Positions 31,479-60,418 of a stretch of 64,000 bases of DNA are shown here, in pieces. The stretch covers positions 240,257 through 304,256 of the forward strand of contig CAXXXF010000012.1 in assembly GCA_963667175.2 (NCBI GenBank), read 5' to 3'. Both the position numbers and the translations under genes were made by a program. The notes beneath the pieces are model-generated. The model did not search any database, was not told the origin of the DNA, and saw only the letters and a list, made by a program, of their open reading frames with translations. This DNA comes from Candidatus Latescibacterota bacterium (GTDB taxonomy: Bacteria; Latescibacterota; UBA2968; GCA-2709665). Numbering within the stretch: position 1 is the stretch's first letter; the number at the start of each line of letters is the position of its first letter.

Positions 31479-31555
31479 TGGTGGGCGATACTGGACTCGA
31501 ACCAGTGACCTCTTGCATGTCAAGCAAGCACTCTAACCACCTGAGCTAATCGCCC
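31479..31555 (-). tRNA. tRNA-Val(GAC)
   Basis: GGGCGATTAGCTCAGGTGGTTAGAGTGCTTGCTT-GAC-ATGCAAGAGGTCACTGGTTCGAGTCCAGTATCGCCCACCA: cloverleaf, 77 nt, encoded CCA. Confidence 0.97.
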
Positions 31556-31947
31556 GTCCATTTCGAACCGGTTACGTGGAGCGCCGGGAATCCGGTGACA
31601 GCCAGTTCGCAGTTCGTTAACGAGTTGCGACGCGAAATCTGGTCATCCGTTCGTACCGAGGCGCGAACCCCCCGGCCGATTCAGACAAAAAATCTATACG
31701 AAACAGTGGGCGAAGTCAAGCGGAATGTGGGACCGGAAGGCTGCCTCGGACGGCGCCTGATCCGATGGCAGTCAGCCGTCGCGCGACCCGTCTATTTTCT
31801 GGCGGCGACCCGGGTTTGGGGTCGTTTGCGCTTGACATCCACGGACGAAGGCCGAATATTGGCGGTTCCGGGTCGTCAGGGCAGGTAGCGCGGGTTTCGG
31901 TCCGGTCAACCCGGAGGCGTGCTTCCTGGCGCCAATTGATGCAATAG

Positions 31948-32126
31948 CAGTCCGTTGAAAGAGTCGCTCTGCAGGCGAGGCCGAGTCATTGTGGCCGAAG
32001 ACAAGACGCGCGACCGACGCGAATCCCTGGATTCGGGGAGGGAGCGCCTGCCTGCTGCAGGCAGGCAACGCCGTAGTTCGGCCATAAGGGCAGGACGCAG
32101 CCCGGATGGACTTTTTCAACGGGCTG
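31948..32126. mobile_element. MITE-like element (~180 bp) with IS5/IS1182-type ends
   Basis: 18-bp terminal inverted repeats CAGTCCGTTGAAAGAGTC / GACTTTTTCAACGGGCTG (2 mismatches); no transposase. Confidence 0.7.
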
Positions 32127-32145
32127 ATAGGGGTAGAGAATCACC

Positions 32146-33222
32146 ATGAAAACCTACAAAGCCGCACTGATCGGGTGCAGCCGAATGGGCGCCTTCATCG
32201 ACAATGAAGTGCCTGAATCCTGGGGCGCTTATTCGCATGCGGCGGGATACGAGGCGTGCGAAAGAACGGAAATGGTCGCCTGTTCGGACTTGCGCGGGGA
32301 AGCCATGAAACAGGCCGGACTCCGCTATGGCGTGCCGGAAGAGAGGCAGTACCTCGACTACCGGGAGATGATCGAACGCGAGCGCCCGGAAATCGTCAGC
32401 GTAGCCACCCAGCCCGAGCAGCGCGCCGGAATCGTCGTCGACACGGTCGAACGGGGGGTCCGCGCGGTCTATGGCGAAAAAGCCATGGCCGCATCTCTCG
32501 ACGAAGCCGACGCGATGGTGGAAGCGGTCGAGCGGAACGGCGCCGTCTTCAACATGGGCACAAACCGCCGCTGGGACCCTGGCTATGACGCGATGAAGGA
32601 GTTGATCGACGGCGGGCGGATCGGCCGCCTGCGCACGCTGATCATCCATCAGACCGGGCCCCTCTTCAACGGCGCCAGCCACAGCTTCGACCTGCTGATG
32701 CGGCTCAACGGCGACAACCCCGTTGCCTGGGTTCAGGCCCACCTGCCGAACGGAGACCAGGTGATCGACGGCGAACGCCTGACCGAGGACCCGGTGGGGC
32801 ACGGGTTCATGAAATTCGAAAACGGCGTCACCGCGTACGCGTTGAATTCAGGACGGGGGATGGAAGTGGAGGCGGTGGGCGACAGCGGCGTGGTCACGGG
32901 AACGCATAACGGCAAGGCGTGGGAATTGCGAGCACACGGCGCCGAAGACCATCGCGGCCGGCCCGTGCTGGTGCCGCAGGAATTTCCGGCCTTCAAACCG
33001 GCAAGTTCAACGGTCCGGCTGATCGAAGACCTCGTCCACTCGCTGGACACCGGAGAACCGCCGCGCGGCGGCGTGAGGACGGCACGCGCCAATACCGAAC
33101 TTATCTTCGCGTTTGTCGAATCTCACGTGCGGGGCGGAGCGAGGGTCGAGTTGCCGATACGCGGCAGCAGGTACCGTCTGCAGAGAAACAGGGCGCCGCG
33201 CGAGCCGAAATATCAGCGTTGA
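32146..33222 (+). CDS. Gfo/Idh/MocA oxidoreductase
   Basis: LIGCSRMG, DYREM....PEIVSVAT, EKAMA, NRRWDP. Confidence 0.88.
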   Translation: MKTYKAALIGCSRMGAFIDNEVPESWGAYSHAAGYEACERTEMVACSDLRGEAMKQAGLRYGVPEERQYLDYREMIERERPEIVSVATQPEQRAGIVVDTVERGVRAVYGEKAMAASLDEADAMVEAVERNGAVFNMGTNRRWDPGYDAMKELIDGGRIGRLRTLIIHQTGPLFNGASHSFDLLMRLNGDNPVAWVQAHLPNGDQVIDGERLTEDPVGHGFMKFENGVTAYALNSGRGMEVEAVGDSGVVTGTHNGKAWELRAHGAEDHRGRPVLVPQEFPAFKPASSTVRLIEDLVHSLDTGEPPRGGVRTARANTELIFAFVESHVRGGARVELPIRGSRYRLQRNRAPREPKYQR

Positions 33223-33268
33223 GGCCGCATTGTGCATTGACGGTTCACCAACACGGCGGGACCCCGGT

Positions 33269-33652
33269 CTAAAGAGACTCGGGCCGGTACAAAATCTGCA
33301 GCAGATTGCCTTCGGGATCCGCCAGAAAGTTGAACCGGGTCCCCGCGGAAGTCTCCCGGTACGGCCCCACAAACGCGGCGCCGCGGCTCTCCAGTACCCG
33401 GCACGCCGAATCGAAGTCATCCACCGAGAGCGCAATATGCCGGATGCCCGCATCGTCGGCGGCGCCGGGCGTGCGCGTCCGGTCGTTTGAAGGCAGGAAC
33501 TCCAGGATTCCGCCTCCCGGGAGGCGCACGAAATAGGTCCGGCTCTCTTCGTTCTCAAGGATCATCTCGAATTCAAGAATGTCGCAGTACCAACGGGCGA
33601 GCGCTTTGGAATCGGCCGCGACAATTGCGATATGCTCGATCGATCGGATCAT
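33269..33652 (-). CDS. VOC/glyoxalase family protein
   Basis: IEHIAI...WY..IL, GIRHIALSVDD, FLADPEGNLLQI. Confidence 0.88.
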   Translation of the reverse strand: MIRSIEHIAIVAADSKALARWYCDILEFEMILENEESRTYFVRLPGGGILEFLPSNDRTRTPGAADDAGIRHIALSVDDFDSACRVLESRGAAFVGPYRETSAGTRFNFLADPEGNLLQILYRPESL

Positions 33653-34555
33653 GCGTCCTCCGTTGGTGACAGGATGATTTCACGGCCCTCCTTCAGCGAC
33701 GCGTCTACCGCAGATGCCACCCGGACAACCGCCTGCCCGTCCCGGGGTGTAATCTGAGGTTTCCACAAGTTCCGTACCACGCCCGCGAAGTGCCGGATCA
33801 GCGAACGTGACATGCCCTCGGTCTGGCCGTGTACCTGCGGCGCGACGGAGGTGTCGGGATATTCCACGTCGTCGGCGCGATAGACCGCAAGACCGGTTTC
33901 GTACGGAAGGACCTCGACGGCCCCGTCCGTGCCGCGTACGGTGAAGAGCTGGTTCTGCGGCCGTCCGGCCCGCGTGGGCGAACCCCAGACATTTTCCAGA
34001 ACGGCAACGGCTCCGCAGTCAAAGGTCAGGACGACGACGATCAGATCCTGCCGGCGCCGCCCGCCGGACCGGGCGTACGCCATGACCCGGGCGACCCCGC
34101 TTCGCGACGTCCAGAGCGCGAGATCGATATCGTGCGGCAGCAGCCAATAGGCCAGCGGAAACCGGCCCAGCACCCGATCGACGGCGGCGGGTTGGGAGGA
34201 TCTCCGGCTGTAGAGATGAAGGACGTCGCCGATTTCGCCGCCCGCGACCGCTTCCCGCATGGCGGCGAACCGGGGATCGAAACGCAGACTGTGACAAACC
34301 ATCAGGCGCACGCCGTTCCGGTCCGCGTCCCGGACCATCCGGGCGGCATCGGAAGGGGACGTCGCCATCGGTTTTTCTACAAGCACGTGCTTTCCGGAAT
34401 TCAGGCAGACCGAGACGGGATCGGCGTGCGCCCATTCGGACGTGGCAACGATCACCGCTTCGATCTGCGGATGGTCGGAGAGCATGTCGCGGTAACGGGC
34501 GCCGGTGTAGAACGGAACGTCCAATTCCGTGGCAACGTTCCTGACGGCGGCCTCG
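33649..34555 (-). pseudogene. Gfo/Idh/MocA oxidoreductase missing its 5' Rossmann GxGxxG region (cut at the junction)
   Basis: GKHVLVEKPMA, RFDP, HDID present. Upstream in frame it reads EAAVRNVATELDVPFY, then unrelated sequence and a TAG, with no NAD-binding start. Confidence 0.75.
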
Positions 34556-34710
34556 CCCCCAACACTCTCCGAGTTTATCTTTATGAGTGGGAGGATGGTC
34601 CGAACGACTACGGGGAAATCATTGAGCCGCGTTACCTACCGAGTTTGGTAGTTCGCTCGGGCGCCGGCGGCAGCCCAATTGAAAGAGTCTCCCTGTCGAC
34701 CGGCTCATAG
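34556..34710 (+). other. Probable 3' fragment of an unknown gene (NTLRVYLYEWEDGPNDYGEIIEPRYLPSLVV...*)
   Basis: Protein-like open frame that starts at the junction and ends at TAG 34710. Confidence 0.4.
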
Positions 34711-34916
34711 AAGCGCGGGGCTTAGCGGCGCAGCATCGATAGCAGCACCTCTCGTGCAGGCGATTTCGCTCGAGTGCGACCATGGAGTGATCACGTTTAA
34801 TTTTGAGAAGCGGAATACGCTCCTCAAAGGTTGCCGCCAGAAGTTCGGATTAGCTAACCGAGCGTATAATGGTTAGGGCCCGGATCTGACCGGGCATTCT
34901 CATGGATGGTCAAAAT

Positions 34917-35882
34917 ATGTCGAGAGAACACGTAGGACATGGGGACGTTGCCCGGTTCGCTCAAGAGAGGGTGAACCTTCCTCGGGATAGAGCGAGTGAG
35001 TATCGTGCGCAGGCTCGCAGGCTCCGCGAAAGGCTCGACGCGTACGTGAGCGAACACCCTGACTTCACGCTCAAAAAGATCCTGCTGTCTGGCAGCATCG
35101 CTAAAGGCACCGCACTCCGCTCATTGAACGATATCGACTTGGCGTGCTACATCAACGGCGCCGATGCGCCCAACGAGGTGGCGCAATTGCTCGATTACCT
35201 GGCCGACCGTCTTCGCACGGCGTTCCCAAATTTCAAGCCGGACCAGGTGCAACCTCAGACCTACTGCGTGAAGGTATCGTTCCGTGGCTCCGGTCTCGAT
35301 GTGGACGTGGTTCCGGTCCTCTATGACGACGACCCGGACTGGTACGGGAAGTTGGTAAACCAGGAAGACGGCTCTTTCCTCTGGACCTGTATACCCCGAC
35401 ATCTAGAATTCATCGACAAGAGGAAGAAAGCCCAACAGACCGACTTCGCCCAAGTGGTGCGTCTCGTCAAATTCTGGGCGGGCGAGATCAAAAGGGAACG
35501 ACCGGATTTCCGGTTCAAATCATTCATGATCGAGATGATCCTCTCACGCCTTTGTGACGACAATTTGAGTTTCGCCGATTATCCGGAGGCACTTCAGCAC
35601 TTCTTCACATACGTGGCGCAGAGCGACTTGCGCGAGAAGATCGTGTTCACCGATTACTACCACGCCAGTTCAGTCGGCCGGTTCAGTGAACCGGTCCGGA
35701 TAATTGACCCCGTCAACGAGGACAACAACGTAGCCAAGTTGTACTCCAACAGCCAAGCGGACGCGATTGTCGACGCGGCCCTTGAGGCGGGAGACGCCAT
35801 TGACGCCGCCTTGTCTGCGCCCACGAAGAGCGAAACCGTGCGTTATTGGCGCAAGGTATTCGGATCATCATTCCAAGCCTGA
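34917..35882 (+). CDS. cdnC: CBASS CD-NTase, CdnC-like cyclic oligonucleotide synthase
   Basis: SGSIAKGTALRSLNDID (GS..DxD), LDVDVVP, FKSFMIE, DPVN..NNVA, WRKVFGSSF; colinear with E. coli MS115-1 CdnC as recalled. Confidence 0.93.
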   Translation: MSREHVGHGDVARFAQERVNLPRDRASEYRAQARRLRERLDAYVSEHPDFTLKKILLSGSIAKGTALRSLNDIDLACYINGADAPNEVAQLLDYLADRLRTAFPNFKPDQVQPQTYCVKVSFRGSGLDVDVVPVLYDDDPDWYGKLVNQEDGSFLWTCIPRHLEFIDKRKKAQQTDFAQVVRLVKFWAGEIKRERPDFRFKSFMIEMILSRLCDDNLSFADYPEALQHFFTYVAQSDLREKIVFTDYYHASSVGRFSEPVRIIDPVNEDNNVAKLYSNSQADAIVDAALEAGDAIDAALSAPTKSETVRYWRKVFGSSFQA

Positions 35883-35890
35883 GAGGAACA

Positions 35891-36406
35891 ATGACATACA
35901 GTCAAACTTTCACCGAAACGTCCACCTTCACCCGCACCCACGCACGGCACCTGGCGGCCAAGGTTGCAACTGATCTCAGGAGGATGCAGCGATTTTACGG
36001 CAGTCCGTCCGATAGCGACATCGCCGATTACGAAGTGGAGGTCATCGAACTTCTGAAAGACGGTTACCTTGGAAAAGTAACCTATGGATTCAGGCGAAAC
36101 GGCTATTGGATTGAGCCTACGCTACAGTACACCGCTAGAGATTTGGCGGGTGGCACTGCCGGCAACGACGACCCAGGCCGTGTGCGTCCCAGGGCAGACG
36201 TTAGTGGTGCATCATTCTGGAGTTACCTGACCTACAGTCACACTTGGGACTCACTGACCGAGTCGCAGCGGCAAGCCGTCAAAGAACGGCTACCAGTCAA
36301 ACGTACTGGTGCGGCAGAGCCGGGAGTGAATGGTTATTGGTCGGCGGACCGAATCTACTCGGCCGGAGGGCGCGCGTTGGACCGCGGCAGCGTGAGGAGC
36401 TTCTAG
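35891..36406 (+). CDS. cap7: Bacterial HORMA1 domain protein (Cap7)
   Basis: TFT.THARHLAAKVATDLRRMQRFYG.PSD, WIEPTL.Y, DDPG.VRP..DVSGASF.S.LTY, YSAGGR; GAGG RBS. Confidence 0.92.
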   Translation: MTYSQTFTETSTFTRTHARHLAAKVATDLRRMQRFYGSPSDSDIADYEVEVIELLKDGYLGKVTYGFRRNGYWIEPTLQYTARDLAGGTAGNDDPGRVRPRADVSGASFWSYLTYSHTWDSLTESQRQAVKERLPVKRTGAAEPGVNGYWSADRIYSAGGRALDRGSVRSF

Positions 36407-37362
36407 TGACCACGACACCCGATTTTGATGACCTGTTTGAAGCGCGGATCAACTATCCCGACCCAGATGCCCGAGAACGTCTGGCGTGTCTGGTTGGTTT
36501 GGATGCGTACAAGACCCGTCTCAGCAAGATTTTGGGGCTTTTGATAAACCCAACGGTGGTGGAAACTTGGCTGGAAAATCACCACCCGGGCGCTACCAGC
36601 GCGTTGAATTGGTTGCTCAGGAGGCCGCCACTGATAATACTCGCCGGCGATGTGGGTTGCGGAAAATCACAGCTCGCAGAAACCATTGGCGACACGGTAG
36701 CCAGAGAGCAGAACGTTGATCTCACGCTATTCCCACTGAGCCTTTCGACACGCGGTCAGGGCCGTGTCGGTGAGATGACTCAGTTGCTGGCGGCAGCATT
36801 CGAACATACTGTCAATGAAGCCAGAAAGTACGTTTCCGACGATGGGCCCCATCGGAGCGCTGTGATACTTCTGGTCGATGAAGCCGACGCTTTAGCGCAG
36901 TCCCGTGAGGCGTCTCAGATGCACCACGAAGATCGTGCAGGTGTGAACGCCTTCATCAGGGGTGTAGACCGCTTGGCCACCGCTGGGCTTCCGGCGGCCG
37001 TCATCATGTGCACGAACCGGCTCTCCGAACTTGATCCTGCTGTGCACCGTAGGGCAGCCGATATTCTGATCTTCACCCGTCCCGACGCTGACCATCGTTT
37101 CGAAGTGCTGAAGACCCCCCTTGAACAGCTGGGGTTCTCGAAATCGCAGGTCTGGTCAATAGTTGAAGCCACCGGCCCTGGTTCGAACGATTGCGGGTTT
37201 ACGTACTCGGATCTCACCCAAAGATTGCTGCCCACAATCGTTCTTGACGCTTATCCCGACAGGGCAGTGTGTCCTGATACGGCCTGTGAAATCGCCCAAA
37301 AGATGAGACCGACACCGTCATTCCAGGGTGAAGGGCTGATTACGTCGGACTCGACGGGGTAA
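36406..37362 (+). CDS. cap6: TRIP13/Pch2-like AAA+ ATPase (Cap6)
   Basis: GDVGCGKS Walker A, LLVDEADALAQSRE..QMHHEDRAGVNAFIRG, TNR..LDPAV.RRAA; TAGTG overlap with HORMA. Confidence 0.92.
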   Translation: MTTTPDFDDLFEARINYPDPDARERLACLVGLDAYKTRLSKILGLLINPTVVETWLENHHPGATSALNWLLRRPPLIILAGDVGCGKSQLAETIGDTVAREQNVDLTLFPLSLSTRGQGRVGEMTQLLAAAFEHTVNEARKYVSDDGPHRSAVILLVDEADALAQSREASQMHHEDRAGVNAFIRGVDRLATAGLPAAVIMCTNRLSELDPAVHRRAADILIFTRPDADHRFEVLKTPLEQLGFSKSQVWSIVEATGPGSNDCGFTYSDLTQRLLPTIVLDAYPDRAVCPDTACEIAQKMRPTPSFQGEGLITSDSTG

Positions 37363-37374
37363 ATCAACGCCGCC

Positions 37375-38848
37375 TTATCCCCAATCCACCGAAAGGATGA
37401 GGGTGTCGGCGTGCTGACGGGATAAGAAAGTGCTCCCGGCTTCGGGGATAATGGTTTTTGATACAGAAAACCGACCCGAAACGAGGAGCACCCGACGGAT
37501 GCTACCGCCTTAACCGCCCGACTGCATCCATATTGCCTTTGATTATCAGCTCCTCGTGGCCGATGCGGGGCTGATTTTGCTCGTCACCCTGGCCAATCAT
37601 CTGTGGTTGGGAAAGCTGGTGGACCGCTACGTTCACCTGGGAGATGCGCCAGGTCGGGCCAACGCGGGAGACAAGGCGCTGACGCTGGCGGCCTCGGCGC
37701 TGGCCGGCGGCGACTGCATTGACGACACCGACGTGTTGCGCGCTGGCGAGACCGAGCGGGTGCTCGGCTGCGTAGTCAAGGCGCCATCCACGCTGGGTAC
37801 GTTTCTGAGGAGTTTCCGGTGGGGTCATGTGCGCCAGTTGGATCGGGTGAGCCGTGAGGTGCTGGCCAGAGCTTGGGCTACTGGTGCGGAACCTGGAGAT
37901 GAGCCTCTGACCATATGGTGGCCGCCTGTCGTGACCAGAAGGTACGCTTCTCCATCACCGTCCGCCAGCACCCGCAACTGGGCAATCTCATCGACGCCAT
38001 ACCTGAAGTGGACTGGACGCCCATACCTTATTGGATGGAAGGCGGCGCCGACATGGCGGAAACCATCTATATTCCCTTCGCCAACAAGCGCGACGCGGTA
38101 CCGGTCCGGCTCATCGCCCGGCGGGTGAAACCCACGCCCGACACCCATCTGGCCCTGCTTGCCAAATACAGCTATCACGCCTTCATCACCGACCGTGAGG
38201 GCGACACCCTGTATCTGGAAGCTGACCATCGCCGTCACGCCGAGATCGAGAATGCCATCCGCGACCTCAAGTACGGCGTGGGGCTCAACCACCTGCCATC
38301 GGGACGTTTCCCCGCCAATGCCGCTTGGCTGGTGGTGCAGAGCCTGCCCCGTACTCGATACGGGGTGCTGTCCCACAACCTGGCACGCTGGACCACTCGC
38401 ATCGGACTGAGTGAGCCGATGACCACCACCAAGACCCTCCGATCGCGCTTCTTCTCCCTGGCGGGACGCATCACCCGCAAGGCCTGACGTCCACCCTGCA
38501 TCTGCCACAGGGCTGGCCTTGGCAAAACCAGCTCAGCAGCGCTCTGGCTCGATTGCGCGCCCTGCCGCTCCCTTCCTGATCGCCGTCCTCGGGGTTTCAC
38601 CTGTCTACGATGACACCATACGCCTGGCCGATCAGCACCCAGGCTGGACCCCTGATGGTCTCCGCCGGCGATCTGCGCTGAAAATCACTGCCAATGCCGC
38701 TGCTACAGGCCGTCAACATCCCCGTGGCGTGGCAGCCACACTCCGCATTCGTCCATTCCATCGCATCAGGTCCTCGCCAGCCCGTTTCCTGACACCTCAT
38801 CCATCGTCTGACCGCCGCCACCGTAACCATTCGGTGGATTCAGGATAA
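37375..38848 (+). mobile_element. IS1380-family element with internally deleted, frameshifted transposase
   Basis: 19-bp inverted repeats TTATCCCCAATCCACCGAA / TTCGGTGGATTCAGGATAA. Fragments GGDCIDD..VLR, APSTLGTFLRSF and HRRHAEIENAIRDLKYGVGLNHLPSGRF remain; the central part is lost after EPLTI (~37912). Confidence 0.88.
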
Positions 38849-39061
38849 TCTGTCTAAGCCACGATTTGGTGGTCCACAAGGCCGGCAAAAGGAATAAGCA
38901 GTTATGGTTTTCACTGGCTCTTGTCTCGGTACCGAACCGAATTGCGCCGTTGCGAAATCAGAGCAGCCAATCACCAATTCCGTGTTATTTGCCGCGGTCA
39001 GTGCTTGGTGGTATGTTGGCATCTGGAGACGGACGAAAATACAGAGGGAGACAAATAAATT

Positions 39062-42000
39062 ATGGCAACCGGTGGGAACAATTTGGTCAGGGGAGCACTG
39101 GTTCAGTGGACCATGGGCAACGGCTACGGCGTGGTCGTTGCGATGGATGAGCGATTGATCACAGTGCGCTGGGATGCGGAGGGGATTCCCACTCAATTTG
39201 CGGGCCGCAGATCCACCTTTATCCCGGGTGGATCTCATTGGCAAACCGGTATGCCGGAGGTCAACCGGAGAGGATGTCGCAGTGCTGAACCTGGTGGCGG
39301 GAGCAATGCCTGTTTGGAACTGCCGCATCTTCCCCAAATCGGGAAGTCCGATGATGTCCAACGTGGCAGAAGAGGATCTGCGACCACTACCGATCACCGA
39401 CCCAATGGAACGCTTCCGGACCGGTGACATCGGTTCAATGAAAAAATATCGGCTACAGGAAGTGACCCGATGGTATCGGGTTCAGCATCTCCACGATGAC
39501 CTGGTATCTCTGGGTCAGGTGCAAGTCGATATAAAGCCGCATCAGGTCTCGGTAGTACACAAAGTGATTTCGGACTACCCCCATCGTTTTCTATTGTGCG
39601 ATGAAGTCGGGCTTGGCAAGACCATCGAAGCCGGAATGGCCCTCAAGGAATTGAGAGCCCGAGGAGGGGCACAGAGGGTCCTTGCCATCGTTCCGCCGAA
39701 CCTGGTTCGCCAGTGGCAGTTCGAAATGAAAACCAAGTTCAACGAAAGTTTCTCGGTTTTGGACACGAACACGGTCCGCTATCTGGCAAGGCAGGGCTTT
39801 GGTGGAAATCCCTTCACCTATTCAGACAGCGTATTGTGTTCCGCCAACTGGGTCGCCAACCCGCAACGGGCTAAAGAATGCGCCGCCGTTGATTGGGACT
39901 TCATCATTGTTGACGAGGCCCACCACGCCCGAAGTCATCCAGACGGTAGCACCACCCGCTTGTACGAACTGGTGCGGGATCTGGCGCCGTCGCAACACAT
40001 CAATCGGCGGGGTATGCTACTGCTAACGGCGACGCCGATGCAGATGAACACCCACGAACTGTATTCACTTGTCGAGCTGCTCAATCCAACTCTTTTCCCA
40101 TCCCCTGAAGAATTCGAAAGGCATCGGCGTAGAGTACCCGGCTTGTCAAAACTTGTGGAGGGCCTCTATCAACACGGATTTCCATTGCCTGACCAAGAAC
40201 CGTCAGACACTGCCAAATATGTCGCGGAGTGGCTCGACCTCGACTACGAAGCCGCCCGCCAACGATTGGCGGACTGTACCCACAACAGGGATGCCTTGGA
40301 CACGCTGGCTCAGGAGTTAGAGGACAAGCATCGCCTCACCGAAGTGCTGATTCGTAACCGCAAGTCGGTGGTTGGTGGGTTTATGCCACGCCGTGCTTAT
40401 CGATGGCCGGTAGACCTGACAGCCAAAGAGCGGGTTGCCCTGCAAGCCGTTGAGGCATACGTCCAATACGGTTTTCAGATGGCCGAGGGAGGCAATGACA
40501 ATGCCATCGGCTTCGTGATGACGACTTTCCAGAAGCTTATGGGTTCCAGCATTGCCGCCGTACGGGAGTCTTTAGGCAGGCGGCGAGAACGGGTTCAAGA
40601 GCAAAACGCTACCCGGCAATCCGCCGAGGAACTCGAGGACAGGTTTGACAACGATGACAACGCCAGCGACGTCGTCGGCACCAATACTTTAGTGGACCTG
40701 GAACTCAATTGGCTCGACCAGGCAATCAACGCTCTCGATGCTGTTGAGGGCGATTCCAAAGCAACGGTTTTGGTGGACCGGCTCGCCACAATATTTGAGG
40801 ATACCCCTGACGAAAAAATCATCATATTCACGCAGTTCCGTGAGACCCAACGGCACCTGGAAGAACGATTGTCGGCCAAAGGCTGGGGCGTCAACCTGTT
40901 TCATGGGCAGTTGAGCACACAAGGGAAAGACGCGGCCGTGGCCCAGTTCAGAGATGCCAGTGGTCCCCAGGTGTTGATCAGTACGGAGGCAGGCGGCGAG
41001 GGCCGCAATCTGCAATTCGCCCACCTTTTGGTCAACTATGACCTGCCCTGGAACCCAATGAAGGTAGAGCAACGCATTGGTCGCATCGACCGGATCGGGC
41101 AGGATCACCCCATCAGCATTTTCAACCTATGGGTTAATGACACTGTCGAAGCCCGTGTTCTGGAGGTACTCGAACAACGCATCAGAGTGTTCGAGGAGAC
41201 GGTGGGAGGTCTCGATCCCATACTAGGTGATACGGAGAACGACATCCGGCGGATTATGCGAACCGTTTCCGCCGACCGTGACGCGGCCCTCGATGCGCTC
41301 GGTAGGCGTGTTGAGGAGGAAATGCGCAATGCCAGGGAGGCTGGAGAGTTGCTTGGTGATTTCATTATGGACACCAAATCGTATCGGAAAGAAATAGCCG
41401 AGCGTCTCGCCGGTCAACAGTCGCCTATCGACAACGCAGATTTTGAAAGGTACATCGGGCAACTCCTCGCCGACGTGCGCACCTATATCCGGCGTGACGG
41501 CGAGGTGTACGATTTGACTTTTCGCAGCGAGTTCTGCGATAGCCCTGATATACGCCACATCTTCCCGGCCGGTCCGAAAATGCGGGCAGTGTTTCGTCCG
41601 GACAGCAGGCCCGATGCGGAGGATGTCGAATTCATGGCCTTTGGTCACAAGGTAGTCGACGCCATAGTGGACATCGTACTCAGCGAAGGATACGAGGGCG
41701 TAACCGGCACCCGTCGTATTCCGGCCGGCGGGGGACTCACTCCCATGACCGGGTGGCTGTTCACTTACCAATTCACCGTCTCCGGCGTACGCCCCGTGGA
41801 GCATATTGTGCCGGTTTTCGTAAGCGACGCCGGAGAGGTTGACGTCGCAGCCGGACACCGCCTCTTGCAAAATGCCTTCCGGTTTGATGATGACGAGACG
41901 GAAATCGGTTGGGTGGACATACCGGACAATCTCATTGACGCTGAAACTCTAGCGAAGGAGTTTGCCGGCACAGAGAGCGAAAAAATACGCACAGAAGCGC

Positions 42001-42317
42001 AGGCTGATGCCATGGTCCGCACCGACCGGGAAATGTCTAGGATTGAAGCTTTATTCGACTACAAGGAACGCGGGGCTGCCGACAAGGTCGAAGCAACCCG
42101 TCAAACGCTCAATCGCATTCGCGAAAGCACCGAAGAATCACAACGTCAGATTCTCCCGGTTTGGGAAGCCAATCTCCGAACAGCTGAAGAATTGTCAACG
42201 AATCTGGCCTCGGAACGCCAGCGTCGGATAGCTGAAGTCGAAAGGTTCCGCTATCCGCAACTGGACTGGATCTTGAAATCAGTGGGACGCATTGAAGTCG
42301 TGGAGTTTGGACCGTAA
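39062..42317 (+). CDS. RapA/HepA-like SNF2 helicase (~1080 aa) with one frameshift near 39203
   Basis: GAGGGAG RBS and ATG 39062 with a Tudor-like N-terminus. After the shift: DEVGLGKTIEAG, DEAHH, LTATP, STEAGGEGRNLQ, DLPWNP..EQRIGRIDRIGQ. Confidence 0.88.
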
Positions 42318-42870
42318 TCCAGACTGCTTGTGCGAGAAGGCATCAATGGTCCAAAACCCAGACATTTGCAGATACCGCGGATGAGGCCAACGGTGACCGG
42401 GTGTATCCACGTGCCTTGAACATCCTGCTCTGGCGGCTTTTATCGGCATATCAATCATGAACTGACCGAACTGCAAGCGTCCTCGGCCTGATCTCGAAGC
42501 CGTAGCGAGTTTCGAGAGAGTCGTAAAAGGCGGTGGTAGAGTGAACCACATGGACGGCTCTATACTCGTAAGCCCCGGTATGACGTTTTGTTGTCGCCCT
42601 TGACAACAGCGACGAGCAGACCGGGCGGCGGGCTCAGCAACCCGACGCGAATAGAAGCGCCACAGCAGGAGTAAGCATCACGACAAGCAGTGGCAGAAAG
42701 GTCAGCTCCAAAGATCTGCACTTTTTGTTACCCGGCACCGACACCAACGACCCACTGGGACGACACCACCCGCCACCATTTCGCCCAAGACGCCCATCAT
42801 CGCCTCCTGGCTGGGGCTGAGCCCGGACCAGCGCATCACCAGCTGCCGGATCATGATCTCAAAGACCAAA

Positions 42871-44050
42871 GGAACCTCTGAAGTAGCTGCTTTCGAGAAT
42901 GGCATGGTCAATGAACGGGATTCCCGATGAATTCAGGCCATGCAGCAGGCGACGTTTCCGCTTTCAGCCGCCCATCTTGGGTTCGACCGCCAACTGCAGA
43001 CAGACTGCGCCCCTGGGATCATGGCGCCAGCTGATGCCCAACGGTCAGCAAGTTGCCCAGTCCCAGCAGCACGTCCAACCGCTGCGTGTTCTTGCCCAAA
43101 CCCCGATAGCGCACCTTGGCGTATCCGAACAGCAACTTGACCTTGTGGAAGGGATGCTCCACCTTGGCTCGGATCGACGACTTCCGCTTCTCGCACCAGT
43201 TCTCCAATCCCTCCGGAGGCAACTGGCGTCGCTGCCCGCGTCGTATCGACACCACCCAGTCCAACTCCCGGTCCAGCTCCACGACCTCCGGCCGCTTCGC
43301 CACCCCGAGGTATCCCGCATCACCCCAGACCCGCTGCTCCCGCCATGGAGCAGCCGATGCGCTTGGGTGATGTCATGAACGTTGGCTGCCGTGGTGGTGA
43401 AACTGTGCACCAATCCCGTCTCGGCATCGGCTCCAACGTGCAGCTTCATGCCGAAGTGGTACTGGTTGCCCTTCTTGGTCTGGCGCATTTCGGGATCCCG
43501 CTCCTGTCTCCGGTTCTTGGTCGAGGACGGCGCCTGGATGATGGTGGCGTCGATTACCGTCCCCTCCCGCAGCCGAAAACCAGGGCCGCCAGATGCTCGT
43601 TGATCTCCTGAAACAATCCCTGACCCAGGTCGTGCCGCTCCGACAGATGCCGGAAATGCAGCAACGTGCTCTCGTCCGGTATGGAGTCCCTCTGGCCCAG
43701 CCCCACGAAACGCCGCACCGACTCCGCCTCGTACAGCAAATCTTCCATGGCCGGATCACTGAGATTGTGCGTCACCTGCACCACGTGGCTGCGCAGCATC
43801 AGCGACAGTGGATAGGGTCGTCGTCCCTTCTCCGCCTTGGGGTAGTAGGGCTCGATCCGCGCCTCCAGTTTCTCCCAGGGAACCAACATTTCCAACTTCT
43901 CAAGGAACACCTGGCGGCGGGGCTTACGCTTGTGGCGAGCCTGTTCCAGGTCGGCAAAACTCGGTTGGTCCATCCTGCGCTCTCCCTCGGGGCTGGTCAA
44001 ACTCTTCCTGCGAATTATGTCACAATCAAACTGGCTTGTTCAGAGTTTCC
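42871..44050 (-). mobile_element. IS5-family element, transposase frameshifted into three pieces
   Basis: MDQPSF..RR..FL....[60 protein letters not shown]. Ends GGAAACTCTGAACAAG (44050) and GGAACCTCTGAAGTAG (42871; alternative end ~42918). Confidence 0.85.
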
Positions 44051-44500
44051 TTAACTCACGAAATCGCAAAGGGGGGCCGTAGACTGGATGCCGAGCTATA
44101 CATCGGCTTCTGACCGAGCGCTCTACCTTTCGGAGAGGGAATGCCCTGCCTGTCCTCAAACGAAACGACCATTGCGTTTGCTGGTAATGGCGGGTTGGCG
44201 CAGTTCGTTGGAGAAGCGCACTTCCGCCCATTGACAAAAACGGGATTCGTAACTGGACAGATGCCCGCCCTGAAAGTTCGGGGTGTACCTGCCAAGTCAC
44301 GCCAATGCCCACCGGCATGGTCGGATCATCCTGGACGATCCAGCATCGTGCGTCGGCCCGGTAAGCGGCTGCCTCCAAGTTCGAGAGCTTCCTTTGCGCC
44401 GGCGACGAGCGGCAAAATCGGGTGCGGATTATAATAGATTGTGAGCAACACCCGGGCAGCTTGTCTGGGTTCCTCATAACCGCAGTGGAGCGCACACATC

Positions 44501-45682
44501 ATGACCGGAAGCATCAGAAAGCGTAGTCCCGGAAGTTGGGAGCTGACGATAGACCTCGGCCGCGACGAAAACGGCAAGCGCATCCGCCGTTACGCCTCGG
44601 TCAAAGGAACCAAGAAGCAGGCCGATCAGCGGTTGCGCGAGATACTCACGGAGCTTGACGGCGGCATCGTACCGTCCACCGAGCGCATCTTGATGCGCGA
44701 CTGGCTGAACACTTGGATGACCGATTGCGTTGACGGACACCTGAGCCTGGCCACCCAGGACCGCTACCGCGGCATCGTCAACAACCACCTGATCCCCGCT
44801 CTGGGCCACATCGAGCTGAAGCGGTTGAGTCCGTCCCACGTCCAGACCTTGCAGAACAACCTGCTGGACGGCGGCATGGACCCCGTGGGCGTGAACCTGG
44901 TGCGCACGGCGCTTTCGGGAGCCTTGAAACACGCCGTGAGCCTGGAGCACATTTCGAGAAATGTCGTGGCGGCGGTCAAGGCGCCGCCCGAACCGGACCG
45001 TGAAGTCCAGCCGCCGCCCATGGAGGCCGTCAAGCAGATGCTGGCTCTGGCGAAAAAGCAGGACTACTGGCTCTATGCCGCTCTGCACCTACTGGCGTAC
45101 ACCGGAATACGTCGCGGGGAACTCCTGGCCCTGCTTTGGCACATGGTGGACTTCAAGAAGTCCGAAATCCGTATCGCGGCGTCATTGGGGCGGCGTTCCA
45201 ACGGCCTGAATCTGTCCAAGCCCAAAACCGCCCGCGGTAACCGCGTCGTGAGCCTGGACGCCGCCACGTTGGATGTGCTGCGCCAGCACCAGGCGCGGCA
45301 ATCCCTGGAGAAGGCGGAACTGGGCGACGCTTACACCGACAACGGCATCGTGTTCGCGGACCCGCTGGGCAACTGGCTCAATCCGATGATGGTTACCCGC
45401 AAGGTGCAGAGCCTGGGCAGGATGGTGGGACATCCCGAAGTCACACCGCACAGTCTCCGTCATTTCCACTGCTCGGTCACCTTGGAAAACGGCGTCAACC
45501 CCGCGGTGACGTCGCAACGCGTGGGGCACTCCAACCCTGCCATCACCATGAGGATGTACGCCCACGTTCTGCCCGGCTGGCAGCAGGAGGCGGCGGACGA
45601 TTTTGCCCGCGTCATGGCCGAGCACCAGGAGGGTACGGAGGATCTGGCATCCGACGAAGTTGTTGAAACTGCGGCGGCCTGA
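44501..45682 (+). CDS. Tyrosine recombinase/integrase with N-terminal arm-binding domain
   Basis: GSIRKR...WEL.IDLGRD, TGIRRGELLAL (R), KPKT (K), HSLRH, RVGHS...T...YAH: full catalytic set. Confidence 0.93.
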   Translation: MTGSIRKRSPGSWELTIDLGRDENGKRIRRYASVKGTKKQADQRLREILTELDGGIVPSTERILMRDWLNTWMTDCVDGHLSLATQDRYRGIVNNHLIPALGHIELKRLSPSHVQTLQNNLLDGGMDPVGVNLVRTALSGALKHAVSLEHISRNVVAAVKAPPEPDREVQPPPMEAVKQMLALAKKQDYWLYAALHLLAYTGIRRGELLALLWHMVDFKKSEIRIAASLGRRSNGLNLSKPKTARGNRVVSLDAATLDVLRQHQARQSLEKAELGDAYTDNGIVFADPLGNWLNPMMVTRKVQSLGRMVGHPEVTPHSLRHFHCSVTLENGVNPAVTSQRVGHSNPAITMRMYAHVLPGWQQEAADDFARVMAEHQEGTEDLASDEVVETAAA

Positions 45683-45683
45683 T

Positions 45684-45910
45684 TGCCGACCAAATGCCGA
45701 CCAAATTCTCAAAAAGGGAGGACATCGGACAGCATCAGACCGCAGGTTTGAGTAGGGGAAGCACCCCCTGCAGCACCCTGCGAGTGGGTATATCCGAATC
45801 CCTCCCTCGGCACCAATTCTCAATCGCACCGAAATTTGAGTTCAAACCGAGTTCAAAAATGGCTTGGATCGCTCGCTGGCCCGTCCCAATGTGGGACAAT
45901 TGTGGGACAA
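45684..45910 (+). repeat. Pairs of short direct repeats with 11-bp period (integrase arm-type-like sites)
   Basis: TGCCGACCAAA x2 (45684-45705), GAGTTCAAA x2 (45838-45857), TGTGGGACAA x2 (45890-45910). Confidence 0.6.
45795..45815 (+). other. tRNA 3'-end fragment (att core, probably tRNA-Leu)
   Basis: CGAATCCCTCCCTCGGCACCA is a T-loop, acceptor strand and CCA with no 5' tRNA half; about 110 bp after the integrase stop. Confidence 0.75.
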
Positions 45911-46383
45911 ACCTACAGTAGGCTACGTTACTGAACAGGTCAGTACGGTACCAAACGCGCAAGGTGCCACGATCCAAATGTAGCCCCGATTGTGGGATTG
46001 ACGCCTTCAACTTTCCGGGGCGCGAGGTCGATGCGTAGGCCGATGGCCCGCTGAACGCGGACCGTCGGCCTTTCGAATATGCGGGCTTGGTTAACCCAGG
46101 CAACCGTTCGGGCTCTGTTCGGAGAAGAGTGCGGCGACCCAAGCTTGACAACGGTCTACTGCGACCTAGGGCGTATCGGTCTACCGCACCCTATACGGCT
46201 TATTGGACAGAAAACTATCCGCCACTAGGCCAAGATACAAGGGCGCAGCTAAGTTGGGCTGATTGGTTGTTGTCAATGGCAAGACACGGATTTTGCCGGT
46301 CTCTCGCTATCCTTGATACGTGGGCGCAACAGCCGCAGCGTTTCGATCCGCTGGGGCCGGGGATGCAGAGGTGCTGCCATCGT

Positions 46384-47121
46384 CTACGGCGCCGTAGGCG
46401 TGCCCGTTGTGCGGGCCCACGGCGAATACCCTCCATTGCGGTTTACTCGTACCTTGACTTGGTATTCTTGCAAGGGTGTGAGGCCTGGGATGTTGAAAAA
46501 GAATGTGTGTGGGTGAACCGCTATACTTGTCCACGGGCTGGTGCCAGTGGCGCGGTAGCGCAACTCGTACCCCGTAATGTCGGACATTGGTCCAGACGAC
46601 GATATTCCAGGTGTCGATGTCCATATGACGTCCAGGCCGTTGGTGATTGGGATCACGGACAAACCGTTAATGTAGGCGCCTTCAAAGTAGCCATGCACTG
46701 GCAACATCGGTCCATTGTATTCCAGCAGCGGCGAAAGGTCAGGCCAGCACCATTCGCCGCTTGGCTGCTTGACCATCGGCCTCTGCCCCGGCTTGCATAT
46801 CGGAACCTGCTGTTCCGGGTGGTACCGGGAGGCAGGCGCAAAGTGGGGCGCAGCGCGGGATGGCAAGTCGGTCGGCATAGCACCAGTCATGGTGCGGGAC
46901 GGCCGGTAGGCTGGTGTCGCAGTCGCCGGCGTACTAGACGGACTATACGTCGTAGGTACGTAACCGGAGCGGAGCCAGTTTTGATGAGATGGTGTCGATG
47001 CGGAACGTACTTGCACGGGAGGACTGATCTCCGTGGCAGCTTCCAGCCTGAAGGACAAAGCCACAGCAACCGCTGAGACGACCAAGACACCGATGGCCGC
47101 TGCCAACCCCACATATTTCAT
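46384..47121 (-). CDS. Secreted protein with Pro/Thr-rich linker and C-terminal fibronectin type III domain
   Basis: Signal peptide; L.V.W......ITGYELRYR...W.......IPGLTP..EY.V.VR FN3 pattern; GAGGAGG RBS. Confidence 0.8.
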   Translation of the reverse strand: MKYVGLAAAIGVLVVSAVAVALSFRLEAATEISPPVQVRSASTPSHQNWLRSGYVPTTYSPSSTPATATPAYRPSRTMTGAMPTDLPSRAAPHFAPASRYHPEQQVPICKPGQRPMVKQPSGEWCWPDLSPLLEYNGPMLPVHGYFEGAYINGLSVIPITNGLDVIWTSTPGISSSGPMSDITGYELRYRATGTSPWTSIAVHPHTFFFNIPGLTPLQEYQVKVRVNRNGGYSPWARTTGTPTAP

Positions 47122-48024
47122 TATTCATCCTCCTCTGCGGTAGGCGGTGGGCTCATCCGGTCGGCTTTGACGATGCGGAGAAACCTATGTTACAAACGCT
47201 GTAATGGGCGTGTTGTCCCTGAGACCTCGGGGCAGAGGACGGCGGGACTCGGCCTGGCGCCGGTGGGTTGACACCTGTCGCCGAGATGCGACTCGGGAGA
47301 CTTGTCACTCAGCCATGTGCTCAAGGTTCAGCATGCCGACTGGCCCTATTGTCGTGGCCGGCGGACATTCACGATTCTACTGTGTCATCGTGGCCGGACC
47401 TGGCTCCACGGTGGGTCGCCCGGGAGCGATTTACCCATGACGAAGCAGACGATCCGTACGAACGTTTCGGCCGACTTCTGTCACCGCATGTGCATGCCGC
47501 GGATGTGCTTCACGTCCATGTTCACGTTCTTGACCAGTCGCCGTCCCTTGCGCATTCCTTGATTGTCGTCTGTCACGCGCCGGTGGCTTGCTGTTTGGTC
47601 GGGAGAACTGTTCGCGACGAAGTTACACCCACCGATGTGTACTAGGCGTACCTGTCAGCAACAGGCAGTCGAGGCAGGTGCCGATCACTCACAGCCCGAC
47701 CCTTGCACGGAACTCCCACTCGCTGGCCAGGAAACACCCGGCAGCATACAAGGTGAATTCGACGGCCATGACAGCGTCAACTCCAACGTCGCCCTCATCT
47801 TTGCCACCGCGGACGAGCACATCACCCTGTAGAGCTCACTAACCCAAGACACGGAGGCTACTACGATTTCAAGACGGAGATGGCACCGGTCTGCAATCCG
47901 GTCGGTAGCTAACAGTTCAGCGAACACGTCCGTTTGTGGAGGGGTCTTCAGGCAGGATTGGAAGCGACCGGCGAAGTTTCCCAAGATCCCTCCGGCAACC
48001 CCACCACTGGCGGCACTTACTCTG

Positions 48025-49359
48025 GTGCTGCTGCTGGTTGTGGGGTGTGGTACGACGGGGGCTCCCTCACCGGGATCGGTGGGTTTGGGCGACCCGCTGT
48101 ATCCAGGCTTGGGCAACGGCGGCTACGATGTTTTGCACTACACACTTATTTTGGATGTAGACGTTGACGCGAACTTCATTCACGGAGAGGCCAGGATTGA
48201 CGCGACGGCGACCCAGGCGCTCTCGGCGTTCAATCTAGATTTGCGCGGTTTGGAAGTCATTGAGGCACGGGTTTCCGGTCAGCGCGCGACTCACAGGCGC
48301 CGAGGGAACGAACTGACAGTAACGCCCGCAGAAGCCATTCGGCGCGGTTCATCCTTCACGGCGGAAGTGGCATTCGAGGGGAACCCTGTGCCCGAAGTCG
48401 TTCCGGGTCTGGACTTCCGGATGGGTTGGGTGAAATATGAAACGGGCATATTCGCAGCGGGAGAACCGTGGGGATCGTCGACATGGCATCCGCTCAACGA
48501 ACATCCTTCGGATAAGGCTTCCTACACAATCCTAGTGACGGTCCCGGACCCCTACGAGGTTGCTGCAGTAGGTGAGCTTGTGGACGTGGTTGATCATGGA
48601 AGCAGGAGCACTTACACGTGGGAAGCGCGTGACGAGATGGCGAGCTATCTGGTCGCGATTGCGATTGCGCAATTTCACAGAGTGACCACAGAGGGTCCGG
48701 AAGGATTAGAGATAGTCGACTACATCGAAACGACGTTGGACCGGTCGGCATTTTCCGGCCTGGAAAAGTTGCCCGAGATTATGGAGTATTTCAGCGATAC
48801 CTTTGGCGAGTATCCTTTTGAGACATTCGGCGCAATTGTTATTGACGCGGAATTTCCCGCGCTGGAGACGCAGACGAGGCCGGTGTACGGCGCGAACGCT
48901 CTGTCAGGTAGGTTGGGCGAGGCAACCGTGGCGCACGAACTGGCCCACCACTGGTTAGGGAACTTTGTGACACCAGCGACATGGGAAGACCTGTGGCTGA
49001 GCGAGGGATTCGCGACGTATTCGGCATGGTTGTGGTACGACCACAAATACGACCGTGAGGCGTTCGGTCGCTTTTGGGACGAGATGTGGACGGACGAGAT
49101 GGGCCCGCCAGGGAAACCTGTTCCGGAAGCTCCATTTGCCTGGGTCTATCAGAGAGGCGCTTTGGTGGTTCACGCCCTGAGGGAGGAAGTAGGTGATGCG
49201 TACTTCTTCGAGATTGTTCGCGAGTACCTATCTCGCCATGGAGGGGACAACGCATCGACTGCTGATTTCATAGAAGTGGCGGAAGACGTTTCCGGCAAGG
49301 AGCTCGATGAACTCTTTGATGCCTGGCTCTACTCCGAAACTCCCCCACTTCCGCCGTAA
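48025..49359 (+). CDS. M1-family zinc aminopeptidase (lipoprotein; start uncertain)
   Basis: VVGC lipobox, GDPLYPGLGNGGYDV.HY, ALETQ, HELAHHW..x18..E (WLSEGFATY), YQRGA. Confidence 0.88.
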   Translation: MLLLVVGCGTTGAPSPGSVGLGDPLYPGLGNGGYDVLHYTLILDVDVDANFIHGEARIDATATQALSAFNLDLRGLEVIEARVSGQRATHRRRGNELTVTPAEAIRRGSSFTAEVAFEGNPVPEVVPGLDFRMGWVKYETGIFAAGEPWGSSTWHPLNEHPSDKASYTILVTVPDPYEVAAVGELVDVVDHGSRSTYTWEARDEMASYLVAIAIAQFHRVTTEGPEGLEIVDYIETTLDRSAFSGLEKLPEIMEYFSDTFGEYPFETFGAIVIDAEFPALETQTRPVYGANALSGRLGEATVAHELAHHWLGNFVTPATWEDLWLSEGFATYSAWLWYDHKYDREAFGRFWDEMWTDEMGPPGKPVPEAPFAWVYQRGALVVHALREEVGDAYFFEIVREYLSRHGGDNASTADFIEVAEDVSGKELDELFDAWLYSETPPLPP

Positions 49360-49551
49360 CGGAGGTATGGTCGCAAGCGCCTGTTTCGCGAATGCTAAAA
49401 GCTACGCACTGGTGCAGAACAGCGGAGAGTGGCTATCGGCCCAGCGCTGGTGTCCCGACCAACGCTCCGGTAGTCCGGCCGGAGTCCCATTTTGTGTCTC
49501 CGGCAGCGCGCTGATCCCGGACCGGTCCGTCTCGGTCTCGGCTAGGTCCGG

Positions 49552-49896
49552 ATGAAGGTGCGGACCGTTGCTGTACTACCCGAGGGAATCCTGGCAAGGG
49601 AACCGGTGGAGCTGACCGCCACCGAGTACGGTGTGCTCAACAACATCTCGTCCCAAGCCGGCATGGTGTTGACCGACTACCAACTGCTGAGCTTGGTGCA
49701 GGGTGTGGCCCACTCCGGCAATGCGAAATTGGATCGGACCAACGTGAGAAGGCTGCGCCAGGAGTTGGGCGACGACGCCGACAGCCCCCGCTATGTTCTG
49801 ACCGCGCCTAACGTCGGCTACCGCAAGAGGCGGGACGAGCACGGGCGCAGATGGAGCCGGCATCCTGGCGGCGACCGAGTCGCCTCGACGCGATAG
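49552..49896 (+). pseudogene. Remnant OmpR/PhoB winged-helix domain
   Basis: VELTATEY.VL, LT..QLL..V.G, VRRLR..LGDD...PRY.LT...VGYR; no receiver domain. Confidence 0.7.
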
Positions 49897-49941
49897 GTTA
49901 TCCTGATAGGTGGCGAAATCTCCGACGCAGGCAAACGGGGA

Positions 49942-53849: not shown

Positions 53850-54098
53850 TCCCGTGTACGCGGTCGGCGAACATGCACCACCGCTGTGACACCTCGGGAT
53901 TCAAACTATTGGCGCTACATTGCGGTGCTGAGATCGTGGGCGAACGGTGCCCAACGGTTAGCATTGCGACGATTATCTCCATGCCTGGATGAAACCACAC
54001 ACTTCGCCGACGGGGCGACGGACCACTGCAATACTGAAATAGCTTGTGGCATTCGGGCGGCGGAGCGTCGCTGACTGCAAAAACCTGAACGGGAGACG

Positions 54099-55579: not shown

Positions 55580-55739
55580 GCATCGTCCAGGCGATTTCGT
55601 CCCGTCTCAACTGATCTGCAACGTCCTCCAGTGCTCCGAATTCAGCGGCGTCTCTTGGTCCATGTACCGGACCATCACTGGTGATTTGCAAGCATGGCAG
55701 GAGGTGGACTGGGTGCCCAAGACGTTTTCCTGCTCCATA

Positions 55740-56090: not shown

Positions 56091-56143
56091 CGTGGTTAAC
56101 TATGCAGAAAATTGCGAAACTAGGGTCTGTTAACAAATAAAAA

Positions 56144-56167
56144 CGCGCTGTCCGATTGGACAGCGCG
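56144..56167. repeat. Perfect hairpin upstream of tnpB
   Basis: CGCGCTGTCC-GATT-GGACAGCGCG. Confidence 0.7.
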
Positions 56168-56203
56168 AACAAAAGATTTCTCCAACCAGTTTATCATCAA
56201 ATC

Positions 56204-60364: not shown

Positions 60365-60418
60365 CCCACCTTGGCGACCAACGCCAACCGGACCACCACC
60401 CCAGCACCGGAGAGCAAC

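Follow-up and report, generated by a model that had tools for sequence, protein, structure and literature searches.

Closest described systems

In Escherichia coli MS115-1, the CdnC cyclase of a type III cyclic oligonucleotide-based antiphage signaling system (CBASS) makes cyclic tri-AMP (cA3). In the operon to which it belongs (PDB 6P80, 6P8V, 6U7B), the genes for the cyclase, a HORMA protein and a TRIP13 ATPase are arranged in this order and tightly coupled, and NucC follows TRIP13. The locus analyzed here is part of a 64,000-nt stretch of DNA, hereafter the window, from a Candidatus Latescibacterota bacterium (assembly GCA_963667175.2, contig CAXXXF010000012.1, positions 240,257 to 304,256), and has the same types of genes in the same order and with the same tight coupling, but TRIP13 is not followed by NucC; instead, the effector in this lineage appears to be a TIR-SAVED protein encoded before cdnC. 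A sequence-only reading had portrayed the locus as a type III CBASS without any effector, followed by a RapA/SNF2 helicase, and offered three explanations, namely effector loss by a deletion next to an insertion sequence (IS), an effector acting in trans or represented by a truncated upstream gene, or an undescribed CBASS-helicase arrangement. In our view, the locus is probably what is left of a type III CBASS in which the effector came first: the signalling half persists, the effector was lost by deletion, and an adjacent IS and SNF2 gene are unrelated cargo.

The TIR-SAVED protein of Microbacterium ketosireducens (PDB 7QQK) is encoded in a type II-C CBASS operon, whereas the partner module in the window is of type III (HORMA/TRIP13). 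Excerpts of the report on that operon state that its cyclase makes cA3, that TIR-SAVED is a cA3-activated NADase, and that NucC is encoded along with it (10.1101/2022.05.04.490601); in those of another account, cA3 is an activator of both NucC and TIR-SAVED, and the cyclase is switched on by HORMA and held in check by TRIP13 (PMC10419184); a third source, in its abstract, calls TIR-SAVED common in type II CBASS (10.1101/2025.06.19.660554). By analogy, HORMA in the intact system would have bound a phage-derived peptide and activated CdnC, the cA3 made by CdnC would have made TIR-SAVED assemble into filaments, whose destruction of NAD+ aborts the infection, and TRIP13 would have kept the system off by stripping HORMA from CdnC.

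A TIR-SAVED remnant in front of an intact signalling module

The effector remnant, the spacer and the three signalling genes occupy the following positions:

34561-34710, plus strand: TIR-SAVED remnant, the last ~49 codons and the stop, with no start codon (positions 382-429 of the 432 in PADLOC model PDLC00728)
34711-34901, plus strand: spacer from the TIR-SAVED stop to the cdnC start, holding TATAAT at 34865-34870
34902-35882, plus strand, alternative start at 34917: cdnC (CD-NTase, clade C; PADLOC PDLC00808, 5e-143)
35891-36406, plus strand: HORMA gene of the bacHORMA_1 type (Pfam PF18138, 2e-62; PADLOC PDLC00884, 3e-84)
36406-37362, plus strand: gene for a TRIP13/Pch2-like AAA+ ATPase with a GTG start (PADLOC PDLC00914, 2e-126)

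The plus-strand open reading frame (ORF) at 33829-34710, which had been taken for a truncated gene, is not a gene in its full length: its first 730 nt are the antisense of an oxidoreductase gene, and its last ~150 nt are the end of a TIR-SAVED gene, matching the C-terminus of the TIR-SAVED CBASS effector model PDLC00728 with an E value of 7e-7. Our set of related loci consisted of the best 80 of 164 confirmed relatives (from 208 pattern matches), with CdnC proteins 68-89% identical to that of the window. The remnant is matched in only one of the 80, L003, where its 49 amino acids (aa) are 82% identical to residues 397-445 of a 449-aa TIR-SAVED protein (L003:7457-8806). The latter is a full-length member of the family by several measures: it matches PDLC00728 at 1.6e-135, contains the Pfam domains TIR_2 and SAVED, and aligns with the M. 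ketosireducens structure 7QQK over residues 28-444 (2e-81). In the window, the N-terminal TIR NADase domain is absent, the sequence to the left of 34560 being that of the core oxidoreductase, and the SAVED domain is incomplete as well, since it spans residues 244-415 in L003 and only the equivalent of 397-445 is kept. These matches support the identification of the missing effector with the truncated upstream TIR-SAVED gene, and an ancestral order that would have been TIR-SAVED - cdnC - HORMA - TRIP13. One of the proposals of the sequence-only reading, that the truncated gene ending at 34710 is the effector, is thereby supported; its statement that no effector is visible holds for a complete one, but overlooked the tail at ~34560-34710.

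The three signalling genes are indeed intact and tightly coupled, as had been claimed, with 8 nt between the cdnC stop (35880-35882) and the HORMA ATG at 35891, and with the TRIP13 GTG at 36406 overlapped by the HORMA stop TAG. Their products can be aligned with solved proteins over their whole length, and are ~65-73% identical to those from E. coli MS115-1. CdnC scores 417.5 bits with NCBIfam NF041116 (CBASS_cyclase_a; cut-off 200), matches E. coli MS115-1 CdnC (PDB 6P80) over residues 6-325 at 4e-140, and has visible GS and DID motifs. HORMA reaches 210.6 bits with PF18138 (cut-off 35.6) and 6e-65 with chain H of PDB 6P8V. The best structural match of TRIP13 is a Rhizobiales Pch2 (PDB 6PB3, 3e-121), followed by the E. 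coli MS115-1 protein (6P8V, 1e-118), and its alignment shows Walker A (GCGKS) and Walker B (DE) motifs. The sequence thus provides what characterizes a type III CBASS on the signalling side, a cyclase with its motifs, an adjacent HORMA gene, and a TRIP13 with Walker A and B, while of an operon-encoded effector only the ~49 TIR-SAVED codons are left at the locus.

We also compared the trio with 78 (CdnC), 77 (HORMA) and 74 (TRIP13) homologues found in the 80 related loci; tblastn segments with stops or with less than 90% coverage of the query were set aside. At columns conserved in at least 97% of the sequences, the window deviates at 5 of 148 positions in CdnC, 1 of 39 in HORMA, and 3 of 110 in TRIP13. 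When each sequence was left out in turn, as many or more deviations were seen in 6 of 79 rows for CdnC and 8 of 75 for TRIP13, which places the window in the upper tail. Two TIR-SAVED-linked loci, L014 and L056, deviate as much or more in cdnC and HORMA, as does L056 alone in TRIP13, and the deviations are therefore better viewed as a character of the lineage than as decay.

The spacer can be aligned with L003 alone among the 80 loci, and 34711-34916, which matches no locus but L003, gives no lead on how TIR-SAVED came to be joined to cdnC. The TATAAT pointed out previously at 34865 does exist as a hexamer (34865-34870), but a consensus promoter scan found no acceptable -35 partner for it, and it is not conserved in L003. 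A few lone TATAAT-like hexamers would be expected by chance in 64 kb, according to our own estimate.

Two complementary wrecks of one operon

The locus closest to that in the window is L003, with a CdnC 89% identical. Its full TIR-SAVED gene ends ~190 nt before cdnC, leaving a spacer of the same length as in the window, and its DNA is 80% identical to the window over 1745 bp (window 34574-36310). Homology stops at 36310, the 3′ end of HORMA and all of TRIP13 being gone, and a search with the window protein gave no TRIP13 match anywhere in the L003 genome. The window having lost its effector and L003 its TRIP13, the two loci are reciprocal wrecks of one operon, and jointly reconstruct the order TIR-SAVED - cdnC - HORMA - TRIP13. 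They illustrate how quickly abortive-infection systems may be dismantled in defence islands. The place of the lost TRIP13 in L003 is taken by two genes for ThsB-like TIR proteins (L003:9975-12920), and a type IV restriction-like gene is located upstream (3739-5538).

Contigs from four public metagenome runs (X1-X4) were aligned to window positions 34300-39400; at most 0.18 of the sampled words were found in any run. Contig 25 of run X4 (5502 bp) aligns with the window at 34560-34728 and 34836-37351, with 205 differences in 2516 nt, i.e., at ~92% identity, and thereby covers the TIR-SAVED tail, cdnC, HORMA and TRIP13, as far as can be told from the alignment coordinates by which the contig is known here. 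It extends 1885 nt to the left of 34560 and 824 nt to the right of 37351, and neither extension resembles window 34300-39400; its right extension, accordingly, contains neither the IS nor the upstream region of the SNF2 gene. The left extension supports, independently of L003, the presence of what would be a longer upstream gene in a TIR-SAVED-first operon.

The deletion at the left rim of the island

To the left of the remnant, the window changes abruptly into core DNA:

33649-34560, minus strand: Gfo/Idh/MocA oxidoreductase, a core gene without its first ~46 codons (Pfam PF01408)
34556-34562: core/island deletion junction with microhomology, located by a five-way alignment

The PF01408 match of the oxidoreductase begins only at position 50 of the 120 in the profile; the minus-strand ORF spans 33649-34524, and homology continues to 34560. 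The region 32130-34545 is found at 81-95% identity in all 14 same-genus genomes. In two of these, G056 and G052, homology ends at window position 34560, and their oxidoreductase gene starts 139 nt further on; the next 1682 nt in these genomes, including the oxidoreductase 5′ end, have no match in the assembly to which the window belongs, and after this gap synteny resumes on its contig C17 (1-16000). A five-way alignment of the core sequences (G056, G052), the window, and the TIR-SAVED genes of L003 and L089 places the switch from one type to the other within GGCC..C. Metagenome contigs divide at the same point: those of the core type (runs X1 and X3) end at 34559, and the CBASS-type contig 25 of run X4 begins its alignment at 34560. 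A single microhomology deletion by illegitimate recombination therefore removed ~400 codons from the start of TIR-SAVED, along with the island's rim and core DNA that included the 5′ end of the oxidoreductase gene; anything further to the left in the island would have gone with them.

The CBASS lies at the left-hand border of an island that is specific to the strain and at least 29.4 kb long. The segment 34561-37362 has no counterpart in any of the 14 same-genus genomes, and 44100-64000 has none in the four that were compared over it (E 1e-30). The sole same-genus matches within 34561-44100 are to a region of SNF2 paralogues (65-68% identity, G052) and to a 389-bp IS fragment (G051). The island around the trio is full of broken genes, and window position 64000 is the end of contig C12.

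Effectors in related loci

We next consider the effectors of the 80 related loci, as revealed by tblastn searches with four query proteins (a NucC, a nuclease-SAVED and two TIR-SAVED). A standard effector was present in 79 of them: nuclease-SAVED in 40, NucC in 36 and TIR-SAVED in two, all after TRIP13, and TIR-SAVED before cdnC in L003. The only locus with no effector, L012, is itself broken, with a truncated HORMA and no TRIP13. The sequence-only reading had called for listing the gene after TRIP13 (cap6) in the closest loci, and had named a standard effector at that place, without linkage to the helicase, as the outcome that would speak against it. This is the outcome obtained: the gene is a standard effector in 78 of the 80, and in none of the loci is there a link with the helicase.

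In a rapid maximum-likelihood tree of 79 CdnC rows, the window and L003 form a pair with an SH-aLRT (approximate likelihood-ratio) support of 99; at a support of 90, below the threshold of 95, they group with L012 and both loci in which TIR-SAVED is downstream. The position of the effector is therefore variable in this CdnC clade, TIR-SAVED standing before cdnC here and after TRIP13 in the nearest group, and pipelines that look for effectors only downstream would call such loci effector-less. The L003 TIR-SAVED is 40% identical to its downstream counterpart in L014, and over the TIR part only; by this comparison, the upstream TIR-SAVED is a gene distinct from those downstream. All five of its moderately close relatives (L084, L089, L127, L128, L129; 52-62% identity) lead operons of type II, which encode a PDLC00810 cyclase and an E1/E2 protein, and the lineage therefore looks like the product of a module swap. 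The ancestral operon thus looks like a hybrid, in which a leading TIR-SAVED in the style of type II may have been joined to a type III module. Such a hybrid is less novel than a trio that persists as a sensor without an effector of its own, yet it is the likelier of the two. A metagenome scan with the L003 TIR-SAVED yielded two loci only, L084 and L085, neither with a type III module, and a search of 168 genomes from the phylum yielded a single relative, in G128, frameshifted and of type II. Literature searches turned up no description of a type III operon led by TIR-SAVED, although we do not claim that such an operon is unpublished.

The type II CBASS of G128, a genome of the same class, is found at positions 6631-10547 of L089 (G128:C1). 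With three frameshifts in TIR-SAVED, its leading gene, and an E1/E2 gene split in two, this system, too, is a CBASS in decay.

The IS1380 remnant and the question of a downstream effector

The usual position of the effector, immediately after TRIP13, is occupied by an IS:

37375-38848, plus strand: degraded IS1380-family element of 1474 bp, with 22-nt inverted repeats at 37375-37396 and 38827-38848

The sequence-only reading had correctly placed this IS ~12 bp after the TRIP13 stop and noted the lack of a target duplication: the left inverted repeat begins at 37375, 12 nt past the stop, and the bases flanking the two repeats, which are 86% complementary, differ. The element shares the terminal inverted repeats and the DDE_Tnp_1_4 transposase with the IS1380 family, but differs from it in the lack of an intact transposase ORF and of a target duplication. 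The transposase sequence is divided between two frames (37556-38128 and 37915-38487) and amounts to only ~930 nt, the second piece matching positions 232-405 of 435 in Pfam PF13701 (DDE_Tnp_1_4) at 1.5e-9; tblastn matches are plasmid genes annotated as IS1380 family transposases. The remnant is single-copy in its own genome. IS1380-related elements occur in great numbers in the metagenome runs X1-X4, in which loose contig ends at 37375 and 37379 and a joint from 38844 to 37375 mark the ends of the element.

This IS would fit a scenario in which the working effector was encoded downstream of TRIP13 and removed by an IS1380-associated deletion, the TIR-SAVED tail belonging to a second effector or to a neighbouring system. 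In 78 of the 80 related loci the effector does start ~10-120 nt after TRIP13; two loci of the nearest CdnC group have TIR-SAVED in that position; an IS 12 nt past the stop without target duplication is what IS-mediated deletion or recombination is expected to leave; and, according to excerpts of its description (10.1101/2022.05.04.490601), a characterized CBASS operon carries both TIR-SAVED and NucC. However, tblastn, blastn, and NucC and nuclease-SAVED hidden Markov models (HMMs) found no trace of NucC, nuclease-SAVED or TIR-SAVED at 37363-37374 or 38849-39061, and a cognate-looking effector is already present upstream in the two or three closest relatives. IS-adjacent loss, which was the first of the earlier proposals, is not needed, as the loss that can be demonstrated is the microhomology deletion at 34560 and not at the IS. 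We consider a downstream effector unlikely.

Several observations nevertheless weigh against the loss of a leading TIR-SAVED effector as the whole explanation. TIR-SAVED precedes a type III cdnC in three sequences only (the window, L003, and X4 contig 25), and none of the three has been seen complete, L003 being without TRIP13 and the 3′ end of HORMA; in the relatives at large, as counted above, the effector is 3′ of TRIP13. An IS without target duplication at the usual effector site means that a downstream effector may have existed in addition. Sequence between C12 and C17 is missing, and with it the island's right end and some of the deletion. Finally, the trio is free of stops and frameshifts and deviates at only 9 of 297 conserved columns, which fits continued use as well as recent loss.

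The SNF2 helicase

The gene that follows the IS, and that had been regarded as a possible partner of the CBASS, has the following position:

39062-42317, plus strand: SNF2-family helicase (RapA-like/DrmD-like; Pfam SNF2-rel_dom and Helicase_C), with a +1 frameshift at ~39202

It is indeed the next gene and co-oriented, as reported, but the ~1080 aa ascribed to it correspond to ~1085 codons that can be read only through the frameshift at ~39202; the ORF as assembled has 1047 aa and starts at an internal ATG (39174). In L110 (1203 aa) and L111 (1276 aa), two relatives of full length, the ORF is uninterrupted where the window changes frame. At 39202, within a run of G, contigs from closer relatives (runs X2 and X3) are one base shorter, and the extra G of the window may be either real or an assembly error. 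The SNF2 N-lobe and helicase C-lobe are shared with RapA, DrmD and DpdE, but, in contrast to these, the window protein is frameshifted and falls below every curated NCBIfam cut-off (RapA NF003426, 353.7 vs 576; DrmD NF038317, 310.8 vs 610; DpdE, 274.8 vs 500), as it does for Pfam RapA_C (23.6 vs 26.8). Its PADLOC matches are to BrxHI, DrmD and DpdE. Pfam and PADLOC scans of the flanking ORFs revealed no DISARM partner gene, and downstream there are only IS fragments and an integrase.

An undescribed system composed of CdnC, HORMA, TRIP13 and SNF2 was the last of the earlier proposals. The genes are adjacent and co-oriented, and SNF2 helicases do occur in defence systems, including those represented by the PADLOC models BrxHI, DrmD and DpdE. 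Against such a system, no close SNF2 relative is present in any of the 80 CdnC loci (a weak match in L068, 34% over 199 aa, is ~6 kb upstream of cdnC), and none of the three loci with close SNF2 relatives (59-65% identity by tblastn) holds cdnC, HORMA, TRIP13 or an effector within ~8 kb; an IS without target duplication separates the two parts, the SNF2 gene is frameshifted, and X4 contig 25 departs from the window sequence right after TRIP13. For lack of linkage (0/80 and 0/3), we rejected this arrangement, the probability of which we regard as close to nil. The IS1380 remnant and the SNF2 gene are bystanders rather than CBASS partners, and may have been brought beside TRIP13 by IS activity or rearrangement. 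The seemingly novel architecture, an effector-less CBASS with a helicase, thus does not survive an inspection of the closest relatives and of the island's boundary.

The SNF2 gene is the only one that the window and the loci of its three close relatives have in common. In the near-identical pair L110 and L111, it is directly preceded by a conserved 110-aa ORF, 72% identical (L110:11425-11757, L111:7848-8201), and the SNF2 proteins of this pair have an extra ~115-130 aa at the N-terminus that the window gene does not possess.

What remains of the system

The remaining trio would, at most, be capable of sensing phage and making the signal. As there is no cognate receptor or killer left, defence was most likely lost with the effector, and the locus represents a known kind of system undergoing ordinary decay in a defence island.

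An alternative is that the trio was retained because its product is read in trans, either by a 2TM effector encoded on contig C17 or by an unrecognized cA3 sensor. Its three genes are intact and well conserved, and the genome does contain a second complete type III CBASS (L083, ~5594-9728 on G000 contig C17:86000-101000), composed of divergent CapP/CapH, a cyclase matching the same model (PDLC00808, 1e-74), HORMA, TRIP13 and the 2TM effector. However, the two cyclases are only 27% identical, and the same product is therefore not implied; recent deletion explains the intactness of the trio equally well, and many genes around it are broken. The search for orphan effectors, which the sequence-only reading had proposed, did not help this alternative either, as it revealed neither NucC nor a SAVED effector outside the locus. 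At E 1e-3, tblastn detected no NucC or nuclease-SAVED in the assembly, which is 95% complete, and home-made HMMs of NucC (33 sequences) and nuclease-SAVED (38 sequences) gave no match at E 1 among 61,054 six-frame ORFs. The only TIR-SAVED signals were the remnant itself and a weak TIR-like match on C14; a home-made TIR-SAVED HMM (4 sequences) missed the known remnant, which voids its negative result, and searches with PF18145 (SAVED) and PDLC00745 (NucC) produced nothing in this genome or in control genomes, and carry little weight. Reading in trans by one of these means is, in our opinion, quite improbable, and we give slightly less credence still to the notion that the loss of the effector did not end the function of the trio and that it may serve as a signal-only sensor for a receptor elsewhere. 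Loss of the effector by deletion, with a trio that most likely no longer defends, remains the preferred explanation.

The second CBASS is flanked by genes for AriA/AbiLi-like ATPases.

Other elements of the island and its surroundings

Beyond the SNF2 gene, the stretches 43045-44000 (minus strand) and 44501-45682 (plus strand) hold fragments of an IS5-like transposase (DDE_Tnp_1, DUF772) beside a tyrosine recombinase/integrase gene; the 389-bp piece shared with G051, at ~43372-43760, is 67% identical. The region 50215-57738 carries further cargo, including a 1182-aa STAND-type NTPase that weakly matches nSTAND5, an AHJR-like nuclease-HEPN fusion (54099-55109, minus strand), and a TnpB/Cas12f-like gene (56476-57738). 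On the core side, a ~185-bp dispersed repeat (31945-32132) separates the first oxidoreductase gene from tRNA-Val (31479-31555, minus strand). It is present in more than 20 copies, 86-96% identical, on many contigs of the same genome, and in dozens of copies (~80-85%) in every same-genus genome listed, and looks like a miniature inverted-repeat transposable element (MITE) or an element of the repetitive extragenic palindrome (REP) type.

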